Shown one piece after another: positions 15,107-64,000 of a DNA stretch of 64,000 nt (positions within the stretch are counted from its first letter, which is position 1; every line of letters starts with the position of its first letter). The position numbers and the translations under genes were made by a program. A model generated the notes under the pieces. It ran no database searches. It worked only from the letters and a program-made list of their open reading frames with translations, and was not told where the DNA came from. The stretch comes from Methanosarcinaceae archaeon UBA470 (GTDB lineage: Archaea > Halobacteriota > Methanosarcinia > Methanosarcinales > Methanosarcinaceae): the NCBI GenBank assembly GCA_002508425.1, contig DAKU01000147.1, positions 44,458 through 108,457 on the forward strand. The letters run 5' to 3'.

Positions 15107-15559
15107 TTTACCTCTTGATTTGATTTTACACAGAAATTAGTATAGTTTCAGACTCAAATTCAGGATAAATCAATTAAAGTGATGATCTTGTAAAATGCTC
15201 ATTGCAGAGCTTCACTTTAATCTCACAAATGTGATATATTTCCAGAACAAAAGAACCAAGTTCTTAATATTATTGCTATCTCTTTTTTTCTGTGTACGAA
15301 TAAATTTGATTATTATTTCGGCTAATTCTAATGAATGATTGCATTGAACGACTTTTTATTATTTTAATCTATTTGCGACTCAAAGACAAGGCAAATTTTG
15401 TAATCTCTTAAAATTACAGGTATACTTTCTACTTACCTATAATTATTCGTTACCATTCGACTATGGACTCTTAATATCTGCAAGATACTGATCTCATATC
15501 TCGAATAGCATCAAAAAGAATATTAACTTAAGAATATTAGTAGAAGTTGGAGGATTATC

Positions 15560-47740: not shown

Positions 47741-48592
47741 ATGACTTCGTATATAGATAAGGTTTCAGGATTTATAAACACATATTATATAGACCCGATC
47801 CTGCAAGATGAAGGTTATAACATAGTTAATACCCTTACATGGGCTATCATACTCGGGCTATGTATATTTGCTGTTGTCAGGTTACTTAAAAAATTGGATA
47901 TACAGGCAAACAACCGATTCATAGCGGCAATAGTGCCCTTTGTGCTTGCGGGATCTTCTATGCGGGTTTATGAAGATGCAGGAATTATACAATATCCTTT
48001 CAATTTGCTCCTGATAACTCCTATTATCTATTTTGTTGTTTTCTTTATCACGCTGGTATGTCTAATTATAGCTAAAGCAATCAGCAAAAAGTGGGCAGGA
48101 AAAAGCACGGAATCCATTTTTGCATCCATGGGAGCTCTCTGGTTCATTTGTAATATATCTTTGCTTCTTAGTTTTCAAAGAATCGTTCTTCCAATGGTAT
48201 TGGTATACATCCTTGGCCTGGGGGCATTGGCAACACTTTTTGTTTACTTTGTAGCAAACAAAGTAGGTTTTGGAGTACTTACGGACAAGTTGAATTTATC
48301 CATACTTGGTGCTCACATGCTGGATGCTTCTTCAACGTTCATAGGAGTGGATTTTCTGGGATACTATGAAAAGCATGTATTGCCCTCTTATCTCATTGAT
48401 TTGACAGGGACAGCATTTGTGATGTATCCGTTGAAGCTAGCCATATTTATCCCTGTGCTGTACATAATAGATACTAATTTCGATGAAGATGCCGAGTCGC
48501 GCAACCTTAGGACATTTGTAAAGTTAGTGATCCTTGTGCTCGGGCTCTCACCTGCATGCAGGAACACTATACGCATGGTTTTCGGGATATGA
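47741..48592 (+). CDS. DUF63 family integral membrane protein
   Basis: 283-aa ORF with about 7 hydrophobic segments and the conserved-looking HMLDASSTFIGVDFLGYYEKHVLP block. Confidence 0.6.
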   Translation: MTSYIDKVSGFINTYYIDPILQDEGYNIVNTLTWAIILGLCIFAVVRLLKKLDIQANNRFIAAIVPFVLAGSSMRVYEDAGIIQYPFNLLLITPIIYFVVFFITLVCLIIAKAISKKWAGKSTESIFASMGALWFICNISLLLSFQRIVLPMVLVYILGLGALATLFVYFVANKVGFGVLTDKLNLSILGAHMLDASSTFIGVDFLGYYEKHVLPSYLIDLTGTAFVMYPLKLAIFIPVLYIIDTNFDEDAESRNLRTFVKLVILVLGLSPACRNTIRMVFGI

Positions 48593-49203
48593 TTAATATG
48601 TACAATGTTAGCAACAAGGAACAAGCGCTACAATATATAAAGGATATACGCAGAGAAATAGGACTCGTATCCATATTGTTCGTATTATCTATGGTCATAG
48701 GATATGTGGTTGCCATTATGTACCCTGACATGGTAATGCAATCGTTGGAGGAACTTGAAGGGGTTGTGGAGTTATTAAAACACCTTTCTCTAATACAGAT
48801 AATGTTTCTTATCTTCCTGAACAATGCCCTTAAGAGCTTACTTATATTGGTACTTGGTATCGGCTTTGGTATAGTGCCATTGCTTTTTATTGCGTATAAT
48901 GGATATTTCCTGGGTATTTTCAGTCATAAAATCCTGATGGAGCAAAGTCTTCTTTATTTAATGGGTGGCCTTCTTCCACATGGTATTATTGAAATTCCTA
49001 TGGTGGTGATCTCAGCTGCTATAGGCGTAAGATTGGGACTTAAAGGACTTGCTTCCCTTAAGGGAGAACAAGTGTACTTAAAGGAAGAAATGATCACAGG
49101 TATCAAATTCTTCTTTTACTGGATCATGCCACTGCTTTTCATAGCTGCTGTTGTTGAAACATTTCTCACTTCAGCTATCATAGGCGTGTTGAGCCAACTG
49201 TAA
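48589..49203 (+). CDS. SpoIIM-like (DUF95) membrane protein
   Basis: ORF 48556..49203. The ATG at 48589 is preferred because it forms an ATGA overlap with the DUF63 stop. LPHGIIEIPMVVISAAIG is the family motif. Confidence 0.65.
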   Translation: MINMYNVSNKEQALQYIKDIRREIGLVSILFVLSMVIGYVVAIMYPDMVMQSLEELEGVVELLKHLSLIQIMFLIFLNNALKSLLILVLGIGFGIVPLLFIAYNGYFLGIFSHKILMEQSLLYLMGGLLPHGIIEIPMVVISAAIGVRLGLKGLASLKGEQVYLKEEMITGIKFFFYWIMPLLFIAAVVETFLTSAIIGVLSQL

Positions 49204-49275
49204 TAAAATATTAAAAAGATTGACACAAAGCCTATATATTTCATTGATATGTGTGAAGACAAGAGAGGGTATAAG

Positions 49276-50433
49276 ATGATAGACAGAAAAGAGATTGTAG
49301 ATATCGTTCAAGATTATAATCCCGAAAAGATCAAGATCGGAGCAATTGCTTCTCATTCCGCATTAGACGTATTTGATGGTGCAGTAGAAGAGGATTTCCG
49401 CACTTTTGCCATATGCCAGCAGGGAAGAGAGAAAACGTATTCTCATTATTTCAAAGCTCAAAGGGACGCTTACGGAAAGGTAAAGCGTGGCATTGTCGAT
49501 GAATCTGTGATGCTCAAGAAGTTCAATGAGGTACTGCTTCCTCAAAATCAGCAGATGTTGCGTGACAACAATATTCTTTTCATTCCAAACAGGTCATTTA
49601 CTTCATACTGCGGAATAGATGAGGTAGAGAATGATTTTGCTGTGCCTATAGTAGGCAGCAGGAACATGCTCAGAAGTGAAGAAAGAGGTATTGACCGCGA
49701 TTATTACTGGCTGCTGGAGAAAGCTGGTCTTCCCTTCCCCGAAAGGATCAATCATCCTCAGGATATAGAAGAGCTTTCAATAGTGAAACTTCCACATGCT
49801 GTCAAGAAGCTGGAGAGGGGTTTTTTCACAGCTGCAACCTATGAGGAATATTTGAAGAAATCGGAAGCATTGCTTAAGCAAGGCGTGATCACGCGGGAAG
49901 CTCTGGACAATGCGAGGATTGAGAGATACGTTATCGGTCCGGTGTTCAACTTTGATATGTTCTACTCTCCCATTGAGGAAGAAATGAGCAAACTTGAGAT
50001 CCTTGGTATAGACTGGCGCTTTGAGACCAGCCTAGACGGTCATGTACGTCTGCCTGCACCCCAGCAGATAACTCTTGCAGAGCACCAGCTTACTCCTGAA
50101 TACACTGTATGTGGGCACAATTCTTCCACATTGCGCGAATCCCTGTTGGAGGATGTTTTCATGCTGGCTGAGAAGTACATTGATGCAGCCAGTAAGCACT
50201 ATGATCCAGGGGTCATAGGACCTTTCTGCCTGCAAACATGTATCGATAAGGATCTTAATTTCCACATATATGATGTTGCACCCAGAGTTGGCGGCGGCAC
50301 CAATGTGCACATGTCAGTGGGCCACCCCTACGGTAACACCATATGGCGAAAGAACATGAGTACTGGAAGACGTATAGCTTTTGAGATAAGAAGAGCTATT
50401 GAGATGGGAGAGTTGGGTCGTATTGTGACCTAA
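49276..50433 (+). CDS. purP: 5-formaminoimidazole-4-carboxamide ribonucleotide (FAICAR) synthetase PurP
   Basis: ORF 49249..50433. The ATG at 49276 is preferred (GAGGG upstream). IKIGAIASHSALDV and an ATP-grasp-like C-terminal half are typical of archaeal PurP. Confidence 0.85.
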   Translation: MIDRKEIVDIVQDYNPEKIKIGAIASHSALDVFDGAVEEDFRTFAICQQGREKTYSHYFKAQRDAYGKVKRGIVDESVMLKKFNEVLLPQNQQMLRDNNILFIPNRSFTSYCGIDEVENDFAVPIVGSRNMLRSEERGIDRDYYWLLEKAGLPFPERINHPQDIEELSIVKLPHAVKKLERGFFTAATYEEYLKKSEALLKQGVITREALDNARIERYVIGPVFNFDMFYSPIEEEMSKLEILGIDWRFETSLDGHVRLPAPQQITLAEHQLTPEYTVCGHNSSTLRESLLEDVFMLAEKYIDAASKHYDPGVIGPFCLQTCIDKDLNFHIYDVAPRVGGGTNVHMSVGHPYGNTIWRKNMSTGRRIAFEIRRAIEMGELGRIVT

Positions 50434-50785
50434 CTTTTTCGTCAGTTATACTAAATATTTACAATTATGCAGATAGATTATGCAATGATTGTTGTGGGTG
50501 TATTCTTGCTGCAGGGATGTTGGTTATGTCTTTGAAGACTTCAATATACGGTTCCACCCAGAATATATTTACATGATTTGTTGTATATCTGTATGAGTTT
50601 AGATTCTATCTACTATAGATAAGTAGGTTTAATACGTAGATATTACTAAAACGTTGAAATCATTTAAATACCAGAAACCAAATGATAACAACGGTCTGGA
50701 GCAAAATATCATCCGGTCATTAGACCGATTGCACGTATTGCTACGTACTTTTATTATTATTTGCCCATCGGAGGGAAATCAGGAA

Positions 50786-52012
50786 TTGAGTCAACCTTGT
50801 GTTAATATCGGCATGGTAGGTCATGTCGACCATGGAAAAACCACTTTAGTGAGCGCATTATCAGGCGTGTGGACTGATACCCACAGTGAAGAGATGAAGC
50901 GCGGAATATCTATCAGGTTAGGATATGCAGATACTACTATCAGAAAATGCCCCAACTGCCCTGAGCCACAATGTTATACTGTACAAGATACCTGTCCGGG
51001 ATGTGGCGAGCCTTCAGAAGAAGTGCGTACTATTTCTTTTGTAGATGCTCCCGGTCACGAGACCCTGATGGCAACAATGCTTTCCGGAGCGGCTATTATG
51101 GATGGTGCCATACTTGTGATAGCTGCAAACGAGGAATGCCCCCAGCCACAGACAAAGGAACATCTGATGGCTTTGAACATCATAGGTATAAAGAATCTTC
51201 TCATTGTCCAGAATAAGATCGATCTTGTATCCAAGGAAGAGGTCATAGATCATTACAAGCAGATAAAGAGGTTTGTGAAAGGTACTGTAGCTGAAAATGC
51301 TCCTATCATCCCCGTATCTGCTCAGCAGAATATCAATATCGATGCTCTTCTTCAGGCTATGGAGGAGCACATCCCAACTCCGGAATATAAGATCGACAAA
51401 CCGGCACAAATGCTCATTGCACGTTCTTTTGATATAAACAAGCCAGGAACCCCTATAGATAAAATAAGGGGTGGTGTGATTGGTGGAACCCTTACAGAAG
51501 GCGTTCTCTCAACTGATGATGAACTTGAGATAAGGCCGGGATATAAGCTGGAAAGCGAAGGAACTACAAGATGGGTTCCAATCTTCACCAAGACTTCCAT
51601 GATATTTGCAGGTAAGGATTCTGTGGATAAAGCAACTCCTGGGGGGCTGCTTGCTGTAGGTACTACATTGGATCCTGCTATTACTAAGAGTGATTCTCTT
51701 GTGGGGCAGGTAGCCGGAAAACCTGGAACATTGCCACCAACTCGTGATATATTTACTCTTGAGCTTAATCTGCTTGAAAGGGTAGTAGGTGTGATCGATG
51801 AGGCAGAGATCGGTTCTATCAGGACAAGTGAGCCTCTTATGCTTAACGTAGGTACAGCCACTACTGTAGGTGTGGTCACCAGTGCAAGGAAGAATGTTGC
51901 TGAAGTAAAGCTGAAAAGGCCGGTATGTGCAAGTGCCGGTTCAATGGTGGCTATCAGCAGAAGAATTGGTTCAAGATGGCGCCTGATTGGTGTGGGAGTC
52001 ATAAAGTCTTGA
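50786..52012 (+). CDS. eif2g: translation initiation factor aIF-2 subunit gamma
   Basis: ORF 50654..52012. The in-frame TTG at 50786 is preferred because GGAGGG lies about 12 nt upstream and the product is 408 aa, starting (M)[20 protein letters not shown]. It has the Zn knuckle CPNCPEP...CPGCG, plus DAPGHE and NKID. Confidence 0.9.
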
Positions 52013-52374
52013 AGGTGATAATCGACACGAATGCTCTGATGATACCTGTGCAATTCAACGTAGATATATTCAGTGAATTGCACAGGCTGGGTTTTGACCA
52101 TTTCATAGTTCCTTCGGCTGTGCTGGTAGAGCTTGATAGGCTCATTGTGCTAGCCCGGGGCCAGGACCGGATGGCTGCAAAAGTAGGAAAGTCTCTGGCA
52201 CAGAGGTGTGAACTTGTTTCTCTGGAAGGGCATGCTGATGATATCATCGTGTCCCTTGCAAAGGATACAGGGGCTGCTGTTTTGACAAATGATATTGGGT
52301 TAAAGAAACGGCTGTTGGAATTGGGCATCAGGGTAATATCTCTCAGGCAAAAGACTCGTCTGGAAATACTGTGA
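52009..52374 (+). CDS. PIN-domain protein (Fcf1/Utp24-like, COG1412 type)
   Basis: Inner TTG at 52009 overlaps the aIF2-gamma TGA; GTG 52015 is an alternative. [10 protein letters not shown] and [12 protein letters not shown] supply the PIN acidic residues. The position between aIF2-gamma and rpoE' is conserved. Confidence 0.75.
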
Positions 52375-52445
52375 TGATTAATAGTAAAAATTATAACATA
52401 TAAATAAGTTTATAGCACAATAACTGGGCTTTTGGAGATAATCGC

Positions 52446-53015
52446 ATGTACAAGAAAATGAAACTTTCTGATACCATCCGGGTAGCTCCTACTCTTTTGG
52501 GCGGGGATGTTCAGGTCAATGTGAAAAATGCACTGAAGGAAAAGCTTGAAGGCAGGCTTGATAAACAGCTTGGTGCGATAGTTGCTGTCACTGGAATTGA
52601 ATCAGTAGGCGAGGGCCACATCCTAGTGGGTGATGGTGCAGTTTACTATGATGTTAATTTTTATGCTATCGTATTTTCACCCATGATACAGGAAGTAGTT
52701 GAAGGAGAGGTTGTTGAAACTGTTGATTTCGGGGCTTTTGTGAGTATAGGTGCCATGGATGGTCTCTTACATGTTAGCCAGATCACAGATGATTTCATGT
52801 CATATGATGGGAAAAATGGCAGGCTCATGAGCAAAACCGGTCCACGTTCCCTTGGAGAAGGTGACAAGGTAAGGGCCAGGATAGTTGCGCTCAGTATTAA
52901 TGAAAGGGAACCAAGGGAGAGTAAGATTGGTCTTACTATGAGGCAGAGTGCCTTGGGTAAACTGGAGTGGCTTGAAGAAGAGAGAACGAAATCCAACGTG
53001 CAAGAAGAGGGTTGA
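52446..53015 (+). CDS. rpoE: DNA-directed RNA polymerase subunit E' (Rpo7)
   Basis: 189-aa ORF with an N-terminal Rpb7-like fold and a C-terminal S1 domain (GEVVETVDFGAFVSIG.MDGLLHVSQI). Confidence 0.9.
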   Translation: MYKKMKLSDTIRVAPTLLGGDVQVNVKNALKEKLEGRLDKQLGAIVAVTGIESVGEGHILVGDGAVYYDVNFYAIVFSPMIQEVVEGEVVETVDFGAFVSIGAMDGLLHVSQITDDFMSYDGKNGRLMSKTGPRSLGEGDKVRARIVALSINEREPRESKIGLTMRQSALGKLEWLEEERTKSNVQEEG

Positions 53016-53017
53016 AC

Positions 53018-53203
53018 ATGGCAGATCAGGTTTGTAGGGAATGCCACAGAATAGTTACAGGTCAAACATGTCTAATATGCAGTTCCAGCAATCTTAGCAG
53101 TGATTGGAGCGGCATGGTCATTATTGTAGATCCCGAAAATTCCGAAATAGCCCAGAAAATGGAGATAAAAGTAGCCGATCGATATGCACTGAAGGTGCGT
53201 TAA
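53018..53203 (+). CDS. spt4: transcription elongation factor Spt4 / RpoE''
   Basis: 61 aa from ATG 53018 (GAGGG 7 nt upstream; the ORF track starts at TTG 53012). It has the zinc ribbon CRECHRIV...CLICSS, directly after rpoE'. Confidence 0.85.
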   Translation: MADQVCRECHRIVTGQTCLICSSSNLSSDWSGMVIIVDPENSEIAQKMEIKVADRYALKVR

Positions 53204-53785
53204 TTGGTAAAAACAATTCACCTCCCGGAAGAACTGCGTCCTTTGTTAAGGAAAACCTTTGGTGTTCTTTACACAGGTGTAGGGGATGACACCATTCAGA
53301 AGCTTTCCAAAGACCTGGGAAGCCCCACAAAACTTATATCGGTGGGTGATGTTACTACATTCCACTTGCTCAATTCAAATATTATTCCGGACATCCTTAT
53401 CGTTGATGACCGGACAAAACGCGGGCCTGCGTCAGCCAGCGTAGTAGTAGGCACAAAGCATACAGGGTTCTGTGAAATATTCGTGGATAATCCTCCAGGG
53501 GTCATAACCGAGGATTTGATCGATGTGGTCCATGACGCAATAAAATCAGAGGACCATGTGCGAATATTCGTGCGCGGCGAAGAGGACCTTGCGGCATTGC
53601 CTGCAATCCTACTGGCACCCGAAGGTTCGGTTGTGCTATATGGGCAACCGGATGAAGGTGTGGTGTTTGTCAATATCACAAAATCCAAAAAGGAAGAGAT
53701 CCTTGACCTGCTTGATAAAATAATTGGCGGGCAGGAAGATAGGAACAATATGATAGATATTCGGAGGAAATTCAATGGATATTAA
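53204..53785 (+). CDS. GTP-dependent dephospho-CoA kinase (DUF359 family)
   Basis: 193-aa ORF with a TTG start abutting the spt4 TAA. ISVGDVTT...PDILIVDDRTKR is the DUF359 pattern, and the position before S24e is conserved. Confidence 0.75.
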   Translation: MVKTIHLPEELRPLLRKTFGVLYTGVGDDTIQKLSKDLGSPTKLISVGDVTTFHLLNSNIIPDILIVDDRTKRGPASASVVVGTKHTGFCEIFVDNPPGVITEDLIDVVHDAIKSEDHVRIFVRGEEDLAALPAILLAPEGSVVLYGQPDEGVVFVNITKSKKEEILDLLDKIIGGQEDRNNMIDIRRKFNGY

Positions 53786-54089
53786 GATTATTGAGGATAA
53801 GAATAATGTACTTATAAAAAGGCGTGAGCTTAAGTTCGAGGTAACCTTTGAAGGGCCCACTCCTACAAGAATGGATGTAAAAAATAAAATGGCTGCATTA
53901 CTGAACGTACCACTGGAACTTGTGGTCATCCAGAGGATGAAGAACGACTTCGGGAGACAGCTAGTCAATGGATATGCAAAGATCTATGAGGATCCTGCCC
54001 GTATGAAACAGGTGGAAAAGGATCATATCATTGAGCGGAACAAGCTGCCAGAGGCACCAGAGGAAAAGGCAGAAGCAGCGGAAGAATAA
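53775..54089 (+). CDS. rps24e: 30S ribosomal protein S24e
   Basis: 104-aa ORF. MDIKIIEDKNNVLIKRRELKFEV.FEG.TP.R..V..K.A is typical of eS24. It overlaps the preceding gene by 11 nt. Confidence 0.9.
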   Translation: MDIKIIEDKNNVLIKRRELKFEVTFEGPTPTRMDVKNKMAALLNVPLELVVIQRMKNDFGRQLVNGYAKIYEDPARMKQVEKDHIIERNKLPEAPEEKAEAAEE

Positions 54090-54101
54090 GTAGGTGTAAC
54101 A

Positions 54102-54251
54102 ATGGCAGTAAAAGATTACTATAAGGTTAGCGGCGACAAACTAGAAAGGACACACCAGGCCTGCCCCAGATGCGGAGAAGGTGTATTCCTTGCTGAACAC
54201 AAGGACAGGCGTACCTGCGGCAAATGCGGTTACACCGAGTTCAAGAAATAA
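54102..54251 (+). CDS. rps27ae: 30S ribosomal protein S27ae
   Basis: Below the ORF-track cutoff. Manual translation gives [49 protein letters not shown] (49 aa) with a C4 zinc ribbon, directly after S24e as in other archaea. Confidence 0.9.
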
Positions 54252-54295: not shown

Positions 54296-54613
54296 TCTAT
54301 CCTATATTATCTTTAGTTGTATCTATTTGCCAAACAGAAGAATTACGAAATGTTTTTAACTCATGGTAATGTACCTGCCATATATTAGGTGCAGATATAA
54401 CAATTGTTAAATATGCATCTATTCAAATTTATTACTAGGTAATAAATCTGAGCATATACCTTGCAAATGAAGTGGTACGAATAAATAAAAGACAAGGCGA
54501 AACTACAATTATCTCTATGATTGATAGTTGTTTTTCCATTTACCTGAATACGGTTAGGATTTATGAGTCCCTCTTATTGTGTATCGATAAATAACCAAAA
54601 AATGATGAAATAG

Positions 54614-54683
54614 AGATGTGTGAGCACTCCTGCCCGCCGCCAAGCAAGAACAGGAGTGCTTTGCATATTATCGGGGAGATAAC
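54614..54683 (+). promoter_or_regulatory. conserved leader with 10-bp hairpin upstream of CobN-like gene 1
   Basis: Positions 54614-54687 match 59621-59694 at 73 of 74 positions. The stem AGCACTCCTG (54623-54632) / CAGGAGTGCT (54651-54660) encloses the 18-nt loop CCCGCCGCCAAGCAAGAA. The SD GGGGAG at 54673-54678 lies 5 nt before the ATG. Confidence 0.6.
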
Positions 54684-57600
54684 ATGCGACAATATCATGC
54701 GTTGACATTAGCATTAAGCCTTTTGTTGTTAGCGTTGCTGACAACTGTTGCATCGGCAGACGAAAATACACTTACTTTTGTGCTGGGAACATCTGAAAAC
54801 CAGCAATCTTTGGCAAATGCAAGTCTTAGCAGTCAGGCGAACATCCTAATATATAATTATCAGGATGTGCCTGATCTATCAGATTCGAGTATTGTGTTCT
54901 TTGCTTCGATTAACGACAGTGCATATTCAAATCTGACAGTAAATAGCAGTGCCGTCATTTGTGGATACAACCTTACAAATACCTCACTTGTAAACACAGA
55001 AAACGACAATATTACAAAGTATTGGGTATATGGTGGAGACTCCAACATAGCCAATATGATCAGTTACATGGAAAATCAGTTTCTAGATTATTCTTCAACG
55101 GTCTATAATCCCCCGGTAACATCTGAAAATCGAATTAACGTAACCATTATTACCGGAAGCAGTGGAGTAAAATCTGGTTTACTTCTGGCAAATGATGATC
55201 CTTTGGTGAGTAAATACGCTCGGGTCAATGTGGTCAACTCAGTTGATGAGATGCCAATAAGTCTGGTCGCAGAAGACATCATTATGCTTGAAATGCTAAG
55301 TTCCGACTGGATATCATCAGCAACAGAACTTTCTACAGAAGCTATGGAACAAAATAATGCCACTGTATTGACTTTGCACACCAGCTTAATAGAAGGCTTT
55401 GGTAACGTCAATGTGTCATCCGCAGAATATGCAACCATTGGCAAGTACTGGGAGTATAAAGGTGATGAGAACATGCGCCGCCTTGTATTATTCCTTGCTG
55501 CTACCTATAAAGATCCCTCAATACCAGTACTTGATCCTGTTGCAAGATCTGTATACGGTTTTTATCACCCTGATGCCCCTGATATATTTGAAACCACTGC
55601 AGAATATCTGGAATGGTATAATTCGACTGGCAAATATAACCCCAATAACATTACGGTGGGAATACTGGAATATCAAGTTCCTACGGCAGAACTAACATCC
55701 AAGGTGGAAGATGCTCTTATTAGAGAGATAGAGTCAAAAGGATGTAATGCAATGTTCGCCTCCTTTTATGTAAAGGACCCGAATTCAACGGAATATTTCA
55801 TGCCAAATGGTACTCCTGTTGTTGATGTAGTTATTTCACTTAGAAGTTATTCACTGGGACAACCCGATACAAACCTTACTCCTGAAATGGCACTTGAATT
55901 CCTGAAAGAACTTAATGTACCGGTGTTGCATGGCACTACCTGTTATTATGACACTGAAGGTATCACATATAAGGGGTCACAGGCAGAATGGGAAAATACC
56001 AGTATAGGTCTTTCTTCGGGTGACATTGCCCGCAACGTCGTCCTACCTGAGTTTGATGGCATATTTGACCCAATCATCTTAAGCTGGAAGAATAAAGATG
56101 AAAACGGTGTTGCATATAATGTAGACCCTCTTGAAGAGCATGTTGAATGGCTGGTTTCCCGTAGTATCAATCATGCACAGTTGGGTGAAATTCCAAATTC
56201 AGAAAAGAAAGTTGCTGTCCTTTATTACAACCACGGAGGAGGTAAAAATAACTTTGCTGCAGTTTATCTCGATGTTCCGGAAAGCCTTAGTAATTTTGTC
56301 GAAGCTATGAACGCTTCAGGTTATAATACTGGAACAGGGCCAATTCCAAACGAAACAGAACTTTTAGACCTGATGGTCCTTCAGGGTCGAAATGTAGGTA
56401 CTTGGGCACCGGGTGAACTTGAAAGCATGGTTGCTACCGGGAAAGTAGTGCTATGGCCTGTTGAAGAATACATGGAATGGTTCAACGCTCTTCCCAAAGA
56501 AAACAGGGATGAGGTTATTGAGCAATGGGGTCCTGCACCCGGAGAGATAATGGTATATGAAAACTCCTCTGGTAGCTATTTCGTTATTCCACGCATAGAG
56601 TTTGGAAATGTAATACTGGGCCCGCAGCCGACACGTGGATGGGAGCAGAATGAAGAGGCTATGTACCATAATTCTTCACTTCCGCCGCATCATCAATACC
56701 TGGCTTATTATCTGTGGCTCCAGCACGAGTATGGGGCAGATGCTATTGTACATTTCGGAACACATGGTACACAGGAGTGGCTTCCAGGAAAAAATGTAGC
56801 ATTATCCAGATATGACTGGCCTTCAGTTATGGTTGGTGACATGCCTGTGATCTACCCATACATAATGGATGACGTGGGTGAAGGAATACAGGCAAAAAGA
56901 CGTGGTAATGCGCTTATTGTAGACCATTTGACTTCTCCTATAATTGAAGCCGGATTATACGGAGGTTATGAAAACATTTCTGATTACATTACTCAGTACA
57001 ATGATGTGAGCATTGCTGAAAATGTAAAAGCCGAATACAAGGCTCTGATAATTCAGGAATATGCTGAACTTGCTTTGGTAGATGCGCTCGGTCTTGATTC
57101 AGCATATTTGAGTAACACAACTGAAGACCAGTTCGATATATTCCTCGAAGATTCTCTTGAACCTTATTTGGAATCACTCGAAACGGCAAGTATGCCTTAT
57201 GGTATGCACGTTATTGGAGAGCAACCTCCTGCTGAACAAATAATTGGAATGATACGCTTAATGCTCGGTGATGACTATATTGCTCTTATCGAGTCTATTA
57301 ACGGCTCTGCGAATGTATCTACTCGTTTACTGGAAAATGTTCTTCTGAATGGTACATCTATAACTGATGCCCAGGAAGAGATGCTTGGAACAAATAATTC
57401 AAATGTGACGGCTTATCTCGAAGAGGGTGAAACATACTATCAGAATATCTTGGATTGTGATCAGGAAATTCCAAACATATTGCGTGCACTGAATGGTGAA
57501 TATATTTTGCCTGACAGTGGTAACGATCCAATCAGAAGTCCAGGTTCTTTACCAACAGGTATCGATTTCTATTCAATTGATCCACGTACAGTTCCGGGAG

Positions 57601-59228
57601 AAGCCGAGTGGCTGGCAGGTGCAAAGGTTGCTAATCAGACACTTAAATTATATAAGGAAGGCCATGATGGTGCATATCCGGAAACCATATCTTTTATAGC
57701 TTTCTCAACAGAACTTATTCGCAATAGGGGAGTCACTGAATCAGAAGTATTGTATTTACTTGGTGTTGAACCTGCATGGGATTCAAACGGCAGAGTTGAT
57801 CTAGAGGCCTTCAGTGTTATTCCTGAAAGTGAACTAGGAAGACCAAGAATTGATATCCTGTATGTGGCGTCTGGATTGTACAGGGACATGTATCCTGATA
57901 AGCTGGAAATGATAGATTATGCTGTGAGGCTTGCATCTAATGCATCGAACTCCACATATCCGAACTATGTTAAGCAGCATTCTGAATTAATATACCAACA
58001 GTTAATTGCCCAGAATTATACGGCAGAAGAAGCAAAGTTGCTTTCTGAGTCAAGGGTAGTTAGTCGTCAATCAGGAGTTTATGGAACGGGACTTGAAGAT
58101 GCGATCGGTGCAAGCAATACATGGGAAAATGAATCAAAACTTGCAGAATTATACATAGACAATCTGGACAACTTCTATGGAGCAGATATCTGGGATGAAT
58201 CTAATACTGATGTATTTGAAGCTATCCTTGGAACTGTGGATGTTGCTGTAAAGTCAGATTCCACTAACCTGCTGGGTCTTATGGATAATGATGATTTTGT
58301 ATCGTGGTTTGGAGGACTTGCACTTGCAGTTAGGGATGTGTCAGGTGAGACCCCTGAATTGTATGTTAATGACTTCACTGATCCTGAGAACCTATTGACA
58401 GAATCATTGAATACGGTGTTGAGCCGGGAGCTGACTGCCCGTTACTTTAATCCAAGCTGGATCGGAGGAATGATGGGAAGTGGCTATGCAGGAGCCCAGG
58501 AAATGGATAGGTTTGTGGAATTCCTTTGGATGTGGGAAGTTACTACCCCTGATGTTGTCTCGGATGCGTCTTGGGATCAAGTCTATGAGACCTATGTTCT
58601 GGATTCAAAGAACCTTGGGCTTGACGAATTCTTTAGTGAAAATGCATATTCCTATCAGTCTATCGCTGCACAGCTGATTGAAACATCTCGAAAAGGCTAC
58701 TGGGATGCATCAGACGAAGTTGTCCAGAACTTGGTGAAAGAATATGTTGAATCCGTGGTAGAAGATGGTGTAACATGTTGTCACCACACATGCGGTAACC
58801 CCTTGTTGGATGACTACATACAGGGTGTCATGTCTGTTCCGGGTGTTGTGGATGAAGAAACCGCAGCTCAGTACAAACAACTCATGGAAGAAGCAACTAC
58901 AGCGACTGAAACTGAAAGTAGTTCCAGTCACAGCAGCAGTTCCAGTGATAAGAAACTGGAAGTTACCAACCAGGACACAAGCTCTAGATCAAACCAGACT
59001 ACTAGTTCACAGGTAGGTGCAGGTGCAGATCTTAGCAAGCAGGCGCCTGAAACATCCAAGTCAACTCCAGATAACTATGTAGAAGGCTATGAGATGACAA
59101 AAGAAACTGTTTCTCAACCTGAAAGCAACAGCAACAAGTTCTCTGGTTCAGACATAGTAGCCTTTGTATTGGTAGTAGTTGCAGCAGGAGCAGTATTCCT
59201 TGGATTCATGAGAAAGAAGAAAATGTAA
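54684..59228 (+). CDS. secreted, C-terminally membrane-anchored CobN/ChlH (class I chelatase large subunit)-like protein, copy 1
   Basis: 1514-aa ORF with the signal peptide MRQYHALTLALSLLLLALLTTVASA/DE. CobN/ChlH family blocks are HFGTHGTQEWLPGK, LPTGIDFYSIDPR and MPYGMHVIGE. It carries more than two dozen N-x-S/T sequons, a Ser/Thr-rich linker, and a C-terminal TM helix IVAFVLVVVAAGAVFLGF followed by MRKKKM. Confidence 0.85.
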   Translation: MRQYHALTLALSLLLLALLTTVASADENTLTFVLGTSENQQSLANASLSSQANILIYNYQDVPDLSDSSIVFFASINDSAYSNLTVNSSAVICGYNLTNTSLVNTENDNITKYWVYGGDSNIANMISYMENQFLDYSSTVYNPPVTSENRINVTIITGSSGVKSGLLLANDDPLVSKYARVNVVNSVDEMPISLVAEDIIMLEMLSSDWISSATELSTEAMEQNNATVLTLHTSLIEGFGNVNVSSAEYATIGKYWEYKGDENMRRLVLFLAATYKDPSIPVLDPVARSVYGFYHPDAPDIFETTAEYLEWYNSTGKYNPNNITVGILEYQVPTAELTSKVEDALIREIESKGCNAMFASFYVKDPNSTEYFMPNGTPVVDVVISLRSYSLGQPDTNLTPEMALEFLKELNVPVLHGTTCYYDTEGITYKGSQAEWENTSIGLSSGDIARNVVLPEFDGIFDPIILSWKNKDENGVAYNVDPLEEHVEWLVSRSINHAQLGEIPNSEKKVAVLYYNHGGGKNNFAAVYLDVPESLSNFVEAMNASGYNTGTGPIPNETELLDLMVLQGRNVGTWAPGELESMVATGKVVLWPVEEYMEWFNALPKENRDEVIEQWGPAPGEIMVYENSSGSYFVIPRIEFGNVILGPQPTRGWEQNEEAMYHNSSLPPHHQYLAYYLWLQHEYGADAIVHFGTHGTQEWLPGKNVALSRYDWPSVMVGDMPVIYPYIMDDVGEGIQAKRRGNALIVDHLTSPIIEAGLYGGYENISDYITQYNDVSIAENVKAEYKALIIQEYAELALVDALGLDSAYLSNTTEDQFDIFLEDSLEPYLESLETASMPYGMHVIGEQPPAEQIIGMIRLMLGDDYIALIESINGSANVSTRLLENVLLNGTSITDAQEEMLGTNNSNVTAYLEEGETYYQNILDCDQEIPNILRALNGEYILPDSGNDPIRSPGSLPTGIDFYSIDPRTVPGEAEWLAGAKVANQTLKLYKEGHDGAYPETISFIAFSTELIRNRGVTESEVLYLLGVEPAWDSNGRVDLEAFSVIPESELGRPRIDILYVASGLYRDMYPDKLEMIDYAVRLASNASNSTYPNYVKQHSELIYQQLIAQNYTAEEAKLLSESRVVSRQSGVYGTGLEDAIGASNTWENESKLAELYIDNLDNFYGADIWDESNTDVFEAILGTVDVAVKSDSTNLLGLMDNDDFVSWFGGLALAVRDVSGETPELYVNDFTDPENLLTESLNTVLSRELTARYFNPSWIGGMMGSGYAGAQEMDRFVEFLWMWEVTTPDVVSDASWDQVYETYVLDSKNLGLDEFFSENAYSYQSIAAQLIETSRKGYWDASDEVVQNLVKEYVESVVEDGVTCCHHTCGNPLLDDYIQGVMSVPGVVDEETAAQYKQLMEEATTATETESSSSHSSSSSDKKLEVTNQDTSSRSNQTTSSQVGAGADLSKQAPETSKSTPDNYVEGYEMTKETVSQPESNSNKFSGSDIVAFVLVVVAAGAVFLGFMRKKKM

Positions 59229-59248
59229 GAAGACTACAAGGTATCTTT

Positions 59249-59312
59249 GGACAATCCATGATCTTATTGTAGGTTCTGGATTGTTCAATGTATTTTTTAT
59301 TTTCTGTTTTTA
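59249..59312 (+). terminator. 3' hairpin + T-tracts after CobN-like gene 1
   Basis: GGACAATCCA (59249-59258) pairs with TGGATTGTTC (59277-59286), 10 bp including one G-U, followed by AATGTATTTTTTATTTTCTGTTTTT. Confidence 0.55.
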
Positions 59313-59620
59313 AATAATCCTTATTCCTATTGTTTATCGCCCGATTAATTACGAAAGGTTTTTAATACTATGGTATATACCATTCAATTAATAGGATAAA
59401 TACTAACAGTTAATAGTATATACTCGACATATATCCTATAAATACTAATATTACTAAGTATATCTCTATTTGCTTTAAGGTGGTACAATGATAAATGCAA
59501 GCAAAAATATGACAAGCAATCCAAATTTACCTAGCTACACCTACTACACTTTTCTATTTGTCAGAATATGCTTAGCTTTTTCAAGTACCTCTTATTGCTA
59601 ATCGAGAGATAAATGAAAAA

Positions 59621-59690
59621 AGATGTGTGAGCACTCCTGCCCGCCACCAAGCAAGAACAGGAGTGCTTTGCATATTATCGGGGAGATAAC
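59621..59690 (+). promoter_or_regulatory. conserved leader with 10-bp hairpin upstream of CobN-like gene 2
   Basis: Same element as 54614-54683. The stem is 59630-59639 / 59658-59667. The single difference (A at 59646 versus G at 54639) lies in the loop. The SD GGGGAG precedes ATG 59691. Confidence 0.6.
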
Positions 59691-62600
59691 ATGCAACGAA
59701 AATATGTATTTACCTTTATCTTAAGCGTTTTGTTGTTAGCGTTGCTGACAACTGTTGTATCGGCAGATGAACAACAAATAAACACGACTTTCAGTATCAA
59801 TGATGGTTCAAACTTTACAGTTACATCGGCTTTAGGCGATGAAAACGCATCTCTCAATGCATCGCTCATTTCTGAGGCCGGGAATACTATACCAAAAATA
59901 GCTTATGTAGTATCAAGGCCTTACGAAGTAACTTATCTGGAAAAAGTAGCATCTTATCCGGAAATAAGTTCACAGATGAATATTAGTGTATACCTTGGTG
60001 TCTCTTATTCAGATTTAAGTTTTGATCTTAGTGGCAATGACATGATTGTTATGTCAAATCTTGATTCCTATGTAGTCGATAAGATCACTTCAACAGTGAA
60101 CGATGCCAAAACAGATGGTGCGTATATCATCTCAGTTGGAGATACCTTAAAAGGCTATGGTCTGCATAACGTAAATACGTCTGCTCCAGAGTATTCCGAT
60201 ATTGAGCTGTACCTAAAATATGCATCAGAAACAAATTTCTATCACTTGGATACTTATCTTGGGTCAACATTCTTCGGGTTGAATTATTCAATCGAGTCTC
60301 CTCAGGAAAGACCAATATATGGTATTTATCATCCTGCTGCACCCCAAATATATGAAAATCTGACAGATTATCTTTCCTGGTATGATGAGAATGGGGTTTA
60401 CAGTTCCGAAAATTCCACCATTGCTATAATATTTGATAGTTACAGTTATGTGGAAAGGGATATGCCATTGCTTGATTCACTTGTCGAGGAAATCGAAAGT
60501 AATGGGTGCAATGTGATTGTAACAACATACTCTTACAAGGATAATAATTCAATGAGTTACCTGACGATGGATAACAAGTCCATAGCCGATGTAGCCATTG
60601 TAGTTTCCCGTGGATCTCGCCTGCATTATGCTGAGAATGAGCAGGGAATCGCTGATCTTGAGACTTTGAACATTACTGTTATGAACGGTATCCGTTTGTT
60701 CTCCGGTGTCGGTGTGGGGGAATGGGAAAATAGCATTCACGGAGTACCACCTGACCAACAGTATCAGGTAGCATATGCAGAACTTGATGGATTAATCGAA
60801 CCTATTGTCATTAGCGGTAAGGCTACCGATGAAGCAACTGGCATCGAATACAATCAACCTATAGATTATCAGATTGACTGGCTGGTCAAAAGGGCAATAT
60901 CCTGGGCAGAACTGCACGAAAAAGAAAATTCCCAGAAAAATATTATTATTCCCTATTATAATCCTGAAGGTGGTAAAGCCGATGTGGGAGCAGATATTGA
61001 TTACTATCTAGATGCGCAGGCAAGCCTTGCAAACCTGCTGCAGGCCATGAAGGATAGAGGTTATAACACCGGGGAAGCAGAACTACCCAATTCCACAGAA
61101 CTTGCTACCATGATGGTCGAAAAAGGTCATAACGTAGGTAACTGGGCTCCCGGAGAACTTGAAAAATGTGTCGAGAATGGCAGTGCTATACTCATACCTG
61201 AATCTCAGTACATGAGCTGGTTCGAAGAACTTCCGCAAGAGAAACAGGATGAAATGGTCTCAATGTGGGGGGAGGCACCCGGAGACCTCATGGTTTATGA
61301 GAATTCCTCTGGCAAGTATCTGGTCATACCGGTGCTTCAATTTGGTAACATACTTCTTGCACCGGATCCACAAAACGGTTGGTCTTCAAGTGAAGAAGCA
61401 ATGTACAATGATGGCTCATACCCCCCAACTCACCAGTGTTTTGCCTTTTATAAGTACATGTCCAGGGAATACAACGCAGATGCAATGTTCACTATATTCT
61501 CAAGTATTGAACTAATGCCCGGTAAAGAATGCGGACTTTCTGCCAAGGACTGGGGAGCATTATTGATGGAAGATATGCCACAGGTACATGTTCTTCCAAT
61601 GGATGCAGAAGGCGTCTTTGACAAAAGAAGAGCTAATATGCTCATCGTTGACTTCATGACTCCAACACTGGTGCCTGCAGGTCTTTATGAAGAACTTGCT
61701 AACCTGCAACAGGATATCACTTTGTTCAACCAGGCCTCTGATACTGCAGTAAAAGAAACCTATAGGCAGAACATCCTTAACCAGACAGCAGAGCTGAACC
61801 TTGATAGTGACTTGGGTGTTGATCTTGGAGAAATATCCGGCAATACAACTCTAACGGATTCATTCATAGTTGATTTGTCGGATTATTTGCAGGAATTAAA
61901 GACAGCGTATATGCCCTATGGATCTCATGTGCTAGGTGAGGTTCCAGAAGGTGAAAGCCTTATCATGCTCATTAAAGGCATGTTAGGGGACGAGTTCATA
62001 GAACATGTGAACGCTTCAGGCGGAAATGAAGATCTTGCAGTCGCACTTTTGAATGAAACGATATTGAATTCTACTTTTCCTTACGATGCACAAATGATGG
62101 TGTTAGGTCAGAACTCCACGGATGTTGGGAATGACCTCAACTTGTCATTGGAGTATCTGGAAAGGATAAAAGACTGCGATTGTGAAATCACAAAGATACT
62201 GGATGCTCTTGACGGTACTTACATTACACCAGGACCTTCGGGTGATCCTATAAGAAATCCGGATGCTTTGCCAACAGGCAGGGATCTATACACTTTCGAT
62301 GACAGGCTCATTCCAACAAGTGCAGCGTGGACAGTTGGTTCACAGCTTGCGGAAGAATTGCTTGCAACTAAACTTCAGGAAGACGGAGGATATCCAGAGA
62401 AGATCGCCTTCCTATTATGGTCTGTGGAAACCACGCGTAACCAAGGAGTAATGGAATCAGAGATATTCAAACTTCTTGGAGTGGAACCCCAATATGATAG
62501 CAAGAATAGAGTTTCAGGCCTCAGGCTCATAAATTCCACTGAACTTGGCAGGTCAAGGATAGATGTGATGGTAGTTACATCCGGTTTATATCGTGATGTC

Positions 62601-63938
62601 TATCCAAACCAGATACAGCTCCTCGATGAAGCAATAAGGCTGGCTGCATCTGCAGAGAATGATACCTATCCGAATTATGTAAGAGAACATTCCGCTGCAA
62701 CCTATGAGAGCCTTATAGACAACGGATACAATGAAACACTGGCATACAACCTCTCAGTTTCAAGGGTATTCAGTCCATCTTCCGGAGCATATACGCCCGG
62801 CATCCAGGAAGCAATAATGAGTGATACATGGGATAATGCAGATGATATAGCTGATCTCTATATAGACAGGATGGGTTACGTCTATGGTCAGGATATATGG
62901 GGAGAACAATATTCTGATGTTTTCGAAATGAACCTTGCAGATGTGGAAACTGCTATATTCAGCCGTACATCGAATGTTTATGGTGTACTTGACCATACAA
63001 TGGTAGCAGCCTATTTCGGCGGTTTGAGTCTGGCAGTTGAAGAAGCAGGTGGCATTGCACCGGATATGTATATCAATGATCTCAGCAGCTCTGCAGAGAT
63101 AGAAACTTTGAGTGAGTTCTTAAGCAAGGACTTGCGTTCACGTTACTTGAACCCAAGCTGGATAGAGGGTATGATGGGCAACGGGTTTGATGGTACAAGG
63201 TACATGGATTCTGTCTTTGAGGTCATGCGTGTATGGGATGTAGCAACTCCTGAACTGGTCACAGATGATATGTGGAATGAGCTATATGGTACATATTTCG
63301 AGGATCAGTATGAAACAGGAGTTACTGAGTATCTAAAGTCCACAAATCCTTATGCATATGAATCAATGGCTGCAACTGCACTGGAATCTGCCAGGACAGG
63401 TTATTGGGACACATCCGAGGATGTAGTTCAGGATCTTGTGAAAGAATATGTGGAAACAGTTGTTGAAAATGGAGTAACGTGCTGCCATCATACTTGTGGC
63501 AATCCTTCACTGGATGAATTTGTACAGGGTGTAATGTCTGTTCCCGGTGTGGTGGATGAGCAAACCGCTGTTGCATACAAGAATATCGTGGAGGAAGCAA
63601 CTGGACGTGAATCTGTAGAAGGAAGCACTTCCAGTCACAGCAGCAGTAGTTCCAGCGATAAGAAACTGGAAATTACCAACCAGGCTAAAACTTCCGGATC
63701 TAACCAGACTACTGAATCAAAGGTAGGAGCAGGTACAGACCTTAGCCAGCCAGAACCTGAAGGCCAAAAGTCAACTCCTGAGGACTATGTGGAAGGATAT
63801 GAAATGACAACGGAATCTCCCTCCCAGCCGGAAAGCAATAGTTCCACCTTCTCAAGTTCTGATATAGTCGCTATTGTTCTGGTAGCTGGTGCCGCAGGGG
63901 CAGTATTCATCGGATTCACGAGAAGGAGGAAAATATAA
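59691..63938 (+). CDS. secreted, C-terminally membrane-anchored CobN/ChlH-like protein, copy 2 (signature His motif degenerate)
   Basis: 1415-aa ORF with the signal peptide MQRKYVFTFILSVLLLALLTTVVSA/DE. It retains LPTGRDLYTFDDR, MPYGSHVLGE and CCHHTCGNP but has MFTIFSSIELMPGK where copy 1 has HFGTHGTQEWLPGK. It has the same Ser-rich linker and a TM helix IVAIVLVAGAAGAVFIGF followed by TRRRKI. Confidence 0.85.
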   Translation: MQRKYVFTFILSVLLLALLTTVVSADEQQINTTFSINDGSNFTVTSALGDENASLNASLISEAGNTIPKIAYVVSRPYEVTYLEKVASYPEISSQMNISVYLGVSYSDLSFDLSGNDMIVMSNLDSYVVDKITSTVNDAKTDGAYIISVGDTLKGYGLHNVNTSAPEYSDIELYLKYASETNFYHLDTYLGSTFFGLNYSIESPQERPIYGIYHPAAPQIYENLTDYLSWYDENGVYSSENSTIAIIFDSYSYVERDMPLLDSLVEEIESNGCNVIVTTYSYKDNNSMSYLTMDNKSIADVAIVVSRGSRLHYAENEQGIADLETLNITVMNGIRLFSGVGVGEWENSIHGVPPDQQYQVAYAELDGLIEPIVISGKATDEATGIEYNQPIDYQIDWLVKRAISWAELHEKENSQKNIIIPYYNPEGGKADVGADIDYYLDAQASLANLLQAMKDRGYNTGEAELPNSTELATMMVEKGHNVGNWAPGELEKCVENGSAILIPESQYMSWFEELPQEKQDEMVSMWGEAPGDLMVYENSSGKYLVIPVLQFGNILLAPDPQNGWSSSEEAMYNDGSYPPTHQCFAFYKYMSREYNADAMFTIFSSIELMPGKECGLSAKDWGALLMEDMPQVHVLPMDAEGVFDKRRANMLIVDFMTPTLVPAGLYEELANLQQDITLFNQASDTAVKETYRQNILNQTAELNLDSDLGVDLGEISGNTTLTDSFIVDLSDYLQELKTAYMPYGSHVLGEVPEGESLIMLIKGMLGDEFIEHVNASGGNEDLAVALLNETILNSTFPYDAQMMVLGQNSTDVGNDLNLSLEYLERIKDCDCEITKILDALDGTYITPGPSGDPIRNPDALPTGRDLYTFDDRLIPTSAAWTVGSQLAEELLATKLQEDGGYPEKIAFLLWSVETTRNQGVMESEIFKLLGVEPQYDSKNRVSGLRLINSTELGRSRIDVMVVTSGLYRDVYPNQIQLLDEAIRLAASAENDTYPNYVREHSAATYESLIDNGYNETLAYNLSVSRVFSPSSGAYTPGIQEAIMSDTWDNADDIADLYIDRMGYVYGQDIWGEQYSDVFEMNLADVETAIFSRTSNVYGVLDHTMVAAYFGGLSLAVEEAGGIAPDMYINDLSSSAEIETLSEFLSKDLRSRYLNPSWIEGMMGNGFDGTRYMDSVFEVMRVWDVATPELVTDDMWNELYGTYFEDQYETGVTEYLKSTNPYAYESMAATALESARTGYWDTSEDVVQDLVKEYVETVVENGVTCCHHTCGNPSLDEFVQGVMSVPGVVDEQTAVAYKNIVEEATGRESVEGSTSSHSSSSSSDKKLEITNQAKTSGSNQTTESKVGAGTDLSQPEPEGQKSTPEDYVEGYEMTTESPSQPESNSSTFSSSDIVAIVLVAGAAGAVFIGFTRRRKI

Positions 63939-63960
63939 GGCCACTTAATTTCATATTTTG

Positions 63961-64000
63961 GACAATCCCTGATCTTATTGTAGGAACTAACTGGATTGTC
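63961..64000 (+). terminator. 3' hairpin after CobN-like gene 2 (partial)
   Basis: GACAATCC (63961-63968) pairs with GGATTGTC (63993-64000). It is homologous to the copy-1 hairpin, and the window ends at the stem. Confidence 0.4.

Follow-up and report, generated by a model that had tools for sequence, protein, structure and literature searches.

The CobN leaders of the window

The window analysed here is a stretch of 64,000 nucleotides (nt) from Methanosarcinaceae archaeon UBA470 (assembly GCA_002508425.1, contig DAKU01000147.1, positions 44,458 to 108,457 of the forward strand). It contains two genes for CobN-like proteins, each preceded by a nearly identical block of 74 nt that runs into the start of the gene. 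With moderate computational support, this block can be regarded as the core of an apparently undescribed conserved structured leader that stands before secreted CobN-like chelatase genes in methane-producing archaea. The two copies of the leader and the genes behind them are the following, SD denoting the Shine-Dalgarno motif:

54616..54668, plus strand: long hairpin of copy 1, from the sequence, minimum-free-energy folds and type-1 covariation (alignment A6); outer helix P0 54616-54621 / 54663-54668 with U54662 bulged, inner helix P1 54622-54632 / 54651-54661
54633..54650, plus strand: 18-nt loop of copy 1, CCCGCCGCCAAGCAAGAA, read from the sequence, with a core CCGCCGCCAAGCAA common to most type-1 leaders
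54662..54688, plus strand: alternative hairpin HP2 of copy 1, from folds; UGCAU-A-UUAUC / GGGGA loop / GAUAA-C-AUGCG
54684..59228, plus strand: CobN-like gene 1, 1514 amino acids (aa); Pfam PF02514 at E = 0, orthologues 73-91% identical
59623..59675, plus strand: long hairpin of copy 2, from the sequence, folds and a covariance-model score of 101 bits; P0 59623-59628 / 59670-59675, P1 59629-59639 / 59658-59668, loop 59640-59657 with A at 59646
59669..59695, plus strand: HP2 of copy 2, from the sequence and folds; SD 59680-59685, start codon 59691-59693
59691..63938, plus strand: CobN-like gene 2, 1415 aa; PF02514 (CobN/Mg-chelatase family), of a paralogue family other than that of gene 1

The two proteins are 45% identical, and the sequence of each predicts an N-terminal signal peptide and a C-terminal hydrophobic anchor. 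Protein cluster-mates at identities of at least 90% are annotated as Methanomethylovorans sp.

The two blocks (54614-54687 and 59621-59694) differ at one position in 74, which lies in the loop (G at 54639, A at 59646), as the initial annotation of this DNA had stated; none of 100 shuffles gave a comparable match. Its description of the element is accurate in other respects too. The stem AGCACTCCTG (54623-54632) pairs with CAGGAGTGCT (54651-54660) over a perfect 10 base pairs (bp), extended by the closing G54622-U54661 pair, around the 18-nt loop; the SD GGGGAG (54673-54678) stands 5 nt ahead of the ATG at 54684; and the motifs CCCG (54633-54636) and CGGG (54672-54675) are where it placed them. 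The three non-Watson-Crick pairs of the window hairpin are all G-U, and the folding z-scores are -2.9 for copy 1 and -3.6 for copy 2. Six loci of the window have a perfect hairpin of 10 bp or more with a loop of 4-30 nt, against about 1.5 expected, and the two leaders account for two of the six. The strongest spaced hairpin of the window is a perfect 13-bp stem with a 16-nt loop (CCTGTGCAATTCA...TGAATTGCACAGG, 52045-52086), situated just after the eIF2-gamma gene and inside or at the start of a PIN-domain gene.

Conservation and covariation in relatives

Leaders were sampled from 12 contigs encoding CobN orthologues or paralogues (individual loci carry L numbers below), and all 19 leaders gathered have a hairpin at a constant position ahead of their CobN genes, which belong to four paralogue families. 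The sources are the window genome (Methanomethylovorans), Methanosarcina-type loci, two Methanolobus-type loci and metagenomic relatives; a genome scan with peptide patterns yielded one close relative only, and a scan of metagenome DNA one true match. The earlier proposal of a conserved structured leader, as opposed to a local duplicate, is thus upheld: the motif is present upstream of orthologous genes in Methanosarcina-type, Methanolobus and metagenomic relatives, and it recurs before CobN orthologues and paralogues with compensatory changes in the stem.

Leaders of type 1 resemble those of the window and share the loop core CCGCCGCCAAGCAA. Type 2, found in Methanosarcina-type loci, has the loop AUUAUUUUUCCUC and a longer stem of about 24 bp, and a third, shorter kind of hairpin stands before one paralogue family. 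In the model-guided alignment of 11 type-1 sequences, which was fitted to the model and thus leans towards the structure, 88% of the cells are paired, and both sides have changed in 10 of the 17 pairs; these values were reached by 0 of 500 shuffles, and slid controls gave 30-53% paired. RNAalifold on a plain MAFFT alignment was unsuccessful, with the arms off by one column, and the model-guided alignment was used instead. For type 2, a plain MAFFT alignment of eight sequences gives a 24-pair hairpin with 87% of the cells paired. The stems differ between leaders yet stay complementary, as in GAGCACTCCTG/CAGGAGTGCT, GGGCACTCCTG/CAGGAGTGCC, GCACTTCGGTA/TACCCGAAGTGC, GACATCCCGG/CCGGGATGTC, AGCATCCGG/CTGGATGCT and GGGCATCCTG/CGGGGTGCCC. 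These comparisons show that the RNA folds as a long, slightly irregular hairpin with an 11-bp inner helix and about six outer pairs, capped by a loop of 13-21 nt with a lineage-typical sequence. The predicted stability of the hairpin ranges from -21 to -28 kcal/mol, and the geometry is kept throughout: hairpin base, 3-5 nt, SD, 5 nt, AUG.

Applied to 358 kb, the covariance model R1 matches CobN leaders only, and in the window only the two copies, which speaks against dispersed palindromic repeats of the REP (repetitive extragenic palindromic) kind. Leader type tracks the lineage of the genome and not the paralogue family, as would be expected if one trans-acting partner is shared. The 3′ half of the Methanolobus-type L020 leader matches that of L011 at about 36 of 39 positions by eye, although the protein of L020 shares only 68% identity with that of L005b, the full-length orthologue of the L011 protein. 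The 14-nt loop core is invariant in six type-1 leaders with differing stems, and the sequence of loop and linker is 65-99% conserved across paralogues whose proteins are only 40-45% identical.

The ribosome-binding site

In copy 1, the 5′ arm of HP2 overlaps the 3′ strand of P0, the SD (54673-54678) falls in the loop of HP2 and the start codon (54684-54686) in its 3′ arm. P0 and HP2 are mutually exclusive in the window copies, where the predicted energy of P1 with HP2 is -26.0 kcal/mol vs -21.3 kcal/mol for P0 with P1, and where HP2 itself buries the AUG in the predicted folds. Covariation of HP2 is little among the compared leaders.

The initial annotation had suggested that pairing of the loop CCCG with CGGG, as a pseudoknot, or of the left-arm CUCC with the GGAG of the SD could occlude the ribosome-binding site. 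Neither pairing stands out from its controls. The loop/SD duplex is no better in the 19 leaders than with shuffled loops (mean z = 0.06). The arm/SD pairing amounts to -5.3 kcal/mol for cognate and -5.7 kcal/mol for non-cognate combinations (permutation p = 0.84). The energy needed to open the region from SD to AUG is 6.14 kcal/mol in the 19 leaders vs 6.05 kcal/mol at 31 control gene starts, and for the AUG alone it is 1.41 vs 1.59 kcal/mol. Occlusion as such is therefore not upheld, and sequestration of the SD or start codon as a conserved property was rejected, together with a riboswitch or RNA thermometer working by occlusion of the ribosome site. No pairing was found between the loop and the initial 120 nt of coding sequence, nor does the loop have a partner elsewhere in the window on either strand. 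An upstream small open reading frame (ORF) starting from a UUG after an SD-like 3′ arm was dismissed, since by eye it is not conserved and L016 and L021 are without it.

These results bear on the possibility of a riboswitch that senses Ni2+, Co2+, a corrinoid, haem or another tetrapyrrole and changes translation in response. The genes that accompany CobN in related loci (CbiMNQ, ZIP, cation-efflux, FecCD-type ABC and NifH/nitrogenase-like genes) would suit such a sensor, as would the mutual exclusion of P0 and HP2. It would have to be a new one: the statement that the element belongs to no known riboswitch class is confirmed by cmscan, which found no gathering-score match to Rfam on the whole window and, for the leaders of the window, L007 and L021, no match to RF00174 or RF02683 at E <= 10. 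The cobalamin riboswitch (RF00174), with its B12 box and multi-helix junction, and the NiCo riboswitch (czcD motif, RF02683), with its four-helix junction, were both rejected. They resemble the present element in being structured leaders ahead of CobN-family or metal-handling genes, but theirs is a multi-helix aptamer, whereas here a single hairpin is predicted, with no multi-helix junction, no conserved internal loop and no conserved occlusion of the ribosome site. The loop, moreover, is wholly different between lineages and inverted in Methanolobus, the ribosome site is no more occluded than at control genes, and the candidate alternative pairings do not covary. A ligand-sensing riboswitch is thus neither shown nor favoured by this simple architecture, and it is considered very unlikely.

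RNA structure or DNA operator

The strand on which the structure operates is indicated by the type-2 leaders. Their helices contain 44 G-U vs 6 A-C cells, and in each of the five that were tested the fold of the coding-strand RNA is favoured by 5-13 kcal/mol over that of the opposite strand. Together, these two properties imply an RNA structure in the mRNA and not a DNA palindrome.

The alternative is that a transcription factor, such as the ArsR/HTH_5 protein encoded beside several clusters, binds at the DNA level to the inverted repeat and/or to the loop core, just downstream of the promoter and in either orientation. Conservation of the loop core in both orientations (window vs L020 and L021) would be natural for double-stranded DNA, type-1 helices show no excess of G-U over A-C, and L007, L008 and L012 each have a divergent ArsR-like gene upstream. 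In addition, HP2 contains the half-sites of TTATC-N6-GATAA palindromes present at DUF2162 promoters of these clusters, in the form TTATC-N4/5-GATAA. The arms of the leader, however, keep their complementarity while their sequence changes, unlike the half-sites of a shared factor; the spacing in HP2 is 4, 5 or 7, against a fixed N6 in the promoter palindromes; and the distance to the ATG is kept, whereas that to the upstream promoter-like boxes differs by 11 nt between the window copies. With the type-2 bias added, type 1 alone being uninformative, a palindromic transcription-factor operator was rejected as a candidate, and recognition at the DNA level is held to be quite unlikely.

The TTATC-N6-GATAA palindromes stand just upstream of the TTTTTATTTAA box in promoters of DUF2162-ExbB-DUF2149 genes (L007 ~2311, L008 ~7602, L012 ~7718, L020 ~8048, L021 ~8006 and 14479) and are probably the operator of the adjoining ArsR/HTH_5 regulator. 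The same half-sites at a spacing of 4-5 form the small HP2 hairpin before the CobN start codon. The two CobN intergenic regions of the window also contain long palindromes, a different one in each, some 270-330 nt before the ATG (54386-54421 and 59362-59391): GATATAACAATTGTTAAATATGC, and ATGGTATATACCAT within TTAATACTATGGTATATACCATTCAATTAA. These may be protein-binding sites.

Promoter and transcription start

A motif GATAAAT(A/G) had been proposed as a TATA-like box about 20-25 nt upstream of the block in both copies. The spacing is 20 nt in copy 1 (54586-54593) and only 5 nt in copy 2 (59608-59615), where the motif would put the start inside the stem; furthermore, it is replaced by GATAGAAC in the 91% orthologue. 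A better-conserved TATA-like box occurs about 30 nt further upstream:

54557..54571, plus strand: candidate promoter box of copy 1, GGATTTATGAGTCCC, resembling the conserved GTTTTTATGCAAGTTCC upstream of Methanosarcina-type leaders
59575..59589, plus strand: putative counterpart of this box in copy 2, GCTTTTTCAAGTACC

In a related methanogen, the distance between the B recognition element (BRE)/TATA box and the transcription start site is about 19-22 nt (PMC5378194). Combined with the positions of the boxes, this spacing predicts starts near 54587 and 59605, which would lie 15-30 nt before the hairpin. The accessible part of a differential RNA-seq paper on Methanolobus psychrophilus contains no CobN entry. 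In type 2, the outer helix takes in an A/T-rich TATA-like stretch, so that the promoter must lie further upstream, where the conserved box GTTTTTATGCAAGTTCC is found. In some loci the leader has its own promoter-like box, and in L005 (16276) and L011 it directly follows the upstream gene.

Gene conversion and concerted evolution of gene ends

The resemblance between the window copies has a patchy pattern. Between the leaders of gene 1 and gene 2, 69 of 70 positions agree, while the first 27 coding bases of gene 2 match another paralogue family at 24 of 27 positions vs 17 of 27 for gene 1. A further block of near-identity follows inside the coding region:

54714..54764, plus strand: signal-peptide hydrophobic-core block, 48/51 identical to 59721-59771, with the same mosaic conversion pattern

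Both genes are also unusually similar in their last ~100 codons and in the 3′ flank, synonymous sites included. The statement that the downstream coding regions have diverged strongly is therefore right for the 27 bases that precede the 51-nt signal-peptide block, 14 of which are identical, and wrong for that block, the last ~100 codons and the 3′ flank. Judged from this pattern, the 73/74 identity of the copies stems from recent mosaic gene conversion. Consequently, near-identity within the window is by itself no evidence of constraint, which comes instead from cross-genus conservation and covariation. The initial annotation had named a very recent conversion tract, with no covariation elsewhere, as grounds for abandoning the element; the conversion is confirmed, and the absence of covariation is false.

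The reading that the block has no function, and is conserved only through conversion copying it among paralogues, draws on this mosaic pattern and on chimeric or decayed 5′ ends elsewhere, for example upstream of L008 15197. Conversion does not explain the compensatory changes between paralogues of the same genome (L005a vs L005b; L007b vs L007c), nor the cross-genus conservation and the G-U bias, and a block without function is regarded as highly improbable.

The signal-peptide core, the C-terminal anchor and the 3′ flank, shared over a body that is 45% identical, indicate concerted evolution of the gene ends. The flank includes the block TTTGGACAATCC(A/C)TGATCTTATTGTAGG, present at 59229-59290 and 63939-64000 of the window. 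At L022 6174, ATA stands in place of the canonical start codon after the leader, and the ORF begins nine codons further on; upstream of L008 15197 (~15010-15140), there is a decayed type-2 leader with a remnant of a signal-peptide start. Both 5′ ends are signs of frequent recombination among the 5′ ends of CobN genes. About 210 nt upstream of both window genes, AAG(G)TGGTAC is kept (54470-54478 and 59477-59486). DUF2162 and another CobN paralogue have a similar SD-plus-start context (GGTGGTACATG), and the motif may be what is left of an older gene start.

Candidate functions of the leader

The explanation tentatively preferred, plausible though short of an even chance, is a cis-acting mRNA leader of about 75-95 nt whose hairpin abuts the ribosome-binding site and serves as operator for a putative trans-acting factor. 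The leader would be confined to the secreted CobN/HmuS-like chelatase paralogues of Methanosarcinaceae. A lineage-specific factor, either a protein or a small RNA, may bind the hairpin, and because the hairpin adjoins the ribosome-binding site, binding there could control ribosome loading and/or mRNA decay. All CobN paralogues of one genome would then be co-regulated, probably by the supply of metal or tetrapyrrole.

Several observations weigh against this explanation. The trans-acting factor is hypothetical, and the presence of the hairpin in the RNA of the window copies rests on the predicted start. The ribosome site is neither unusually closed nor unusually open compared with other genes, and no switching is visible thermodynamically. 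Type-1 leaders, including those of the window, have balanced numbers of G-U and A-C cells (18 vs 16), and one of them, L014, folds better on the opposite strand; with this balance, the strand argument for the window depends on homology with the type-2 relatives. Frequent conversion among leaders inflates their apparent conservation and, when indels at the loop edge are counted, the loop is no more conserved than the stems. Finally, the loop core is reverse-complemented in Methanolobus (L021) and in the syntenic L020, where it reads TGCTTGGCGGCG.

The reversed segments (L021 9938-9977 and L020 9936-9977, corresponding to 54622-54661 of the window) have the loop ATATGCTTGGCGGCGATC against CCCGCCGCCAAGCAAGAA in the window, with an exact inverted core of 12 nt, whereas the stem flanks and the SD region have an unchanged orientation. 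The difference amounts to a small hairpin-mediated inversion, which two paralogue families have conserved. Hairpin-associated small inversions are known from non-coding chloroplast DNA, where the loops are neutral spacers. As there, a loop within a perfect inverted repeat has been flipped in a related lineage between fixed flanks; unlike there, the inverted 12-nt core stays conserved after the flip. A loop conserved in this way fits recognition of double-stranded DNA, or tolerance of any loop, and is hard to reconcile with a single conserved factor reading the loop.

The main rival of the operator is a constitutive element that senses nothing: the hairpin, lying close to the 5′ end or between cistrons, would shield the 4.5-kb mRNAs from exonucleases and keep upstream sequence off the ribosome site. 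Its stability, its place between the predicted start and the SD with its base abutting the latter, and the ordinary accessibility of the ribosome site are all consistent with such a stabiliser and insulator. So are the occurrence of some leaders behind a promoter-like box of their own and of others immediately after a preceding gene, and the tolerance of three unrelated kinds of loop plus an inverted one. A stabiliser has no need, on the other hand, for loop and linker to be conserved to the observed degree among such divergent paralogues, or for a loop core that is invariant despite stem differences, and its restriction to one gene family would not be expected. This role is considered possible but doubtful. 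Stabilising 5′ hairpins are known in bacteria from the ompA 5′ untranslated region (UTR) and the Bacillus aprE leader. These, too, are stable leader hairpins of genes for abundant exported proteins, with an accessible ribosome site; they differ in lying at the very 5′ end and in not being conserved as a family across paralogues and genera, whereas the sequence is strongly conserved here.

A more specific version of the operator compares it with the iron-responsive element (IRE) and its binding protein (IRP) of animals. A lineage-specific protein or small RNA would read the loop and couple the translation or stability of all mRNAs for extracellular CobN/HmuS-like (de)chelatases to metal or tetrapyrrole status, the loop being exchanged or flipped with its partner between genera. 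Such an archaeal regulon is thought somewhat unlikely. As in the 5′-UTR type of IRE, a 5′-leader hairpin is shared by several metal-related genes and defines a regulon; its stems are free to covary, its loop is characteristic, and it lies near enough to the ribosome entry site for a bound protein to block initiation. There is no homology of sequence or structure: the leader lacks the CAGUGN loop and the C bulge, initiation in the archaeal host is of the Shine-Dalgarno type, the loop varies from lineage to lineage and the binding protein is hypothetical. The IRE proper (RF00037) was rejected on its loop, which is of 13-21 nt and of other sequences than CAGUGN in the leaders, and on the lack of an Rfam match.

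Two other kinds of element were also discarded. A terminator hairpin does not agree with what follows the stem, namely only TTT (54660-54662), then SD and ATG. A C/D box small RNA was considered for the perfect C-box-like AUGAUGA, which is not shared by the leaders, and Rfam snoRNA matches are far below threshold. AUGAUGA occurs in copy 1 (54602-54608) and in the 91% orthologue L005a (L005 9567), within an 11-nt segment that copy 2 lacks, and was not seen in the other leaders inspected; no D box matching it was found at a suitable distance.

Genomic context of the CobN-like genes

In related loci, CobN-like genes form tandem arrays with DUF2162, MotA/ExbB and DUF2149 genes, and an ArsR/HTH_5 regulator is a frequent neighbour along with the metal-handling and nitrogenase-like genes mentioned above. 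A CobN cluster occupies the same site in the window, in L005, a close relative with the 91% orthologue, in L021, which is Methanolobus sp. ZRKC3, and in L020, syntenic with L021; the regions compared are window 47741-54250, L005 2660-9143, L021 415-7732 and L020 456-7823. The shared insertion site comes after the AliA/SpoIIM/PurP-like/eIF2-gamma/PIN/Rpb7/Spt4/DUF359/S24e/S27ae genes. In the window, the DUF2162-ExbB-DUF2149 genes are absent from the interval that separates S27ae from the first CobN gene.

A comparable system is the hmuYRSTUV operon of Bacteroidota, in which the CobN-like HmuS takes iron out of haem; the role of its homologues in archaea and methanogens was stated to be unknown (PMC12583661). 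In both cases an extracytoplasmic CobN-family protein is clustered with MotA/ExbB-like and DUF2149 proteins. The likeness concerns the genes and not the RNA, no such leader having been described for hmu.

Implications for methanogens

Methanogens are heavily dependent on nickel, for F430, and on cobalt, for corrinoids. Archaea have few known cis-regulatory mRNA structures, none of which, to our knowledge, belongs to genes of metal or tetrapyrrole handling in methanogens. The genes studied here also illustrate how the ends of paralogues (leader, signal peptide, anchor and 3′ flank) can undergo concerted evolution alongside a diverging catalytic body, and how a hairpin loop can flip its orientation and yet remain conserved. 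The leader marks a family of secreted CobN/HmuS-like proteins, for which a shared operator would provide an experimental handle: identifying its binder, or a condition that changes its output, would reveal what these proteins do.

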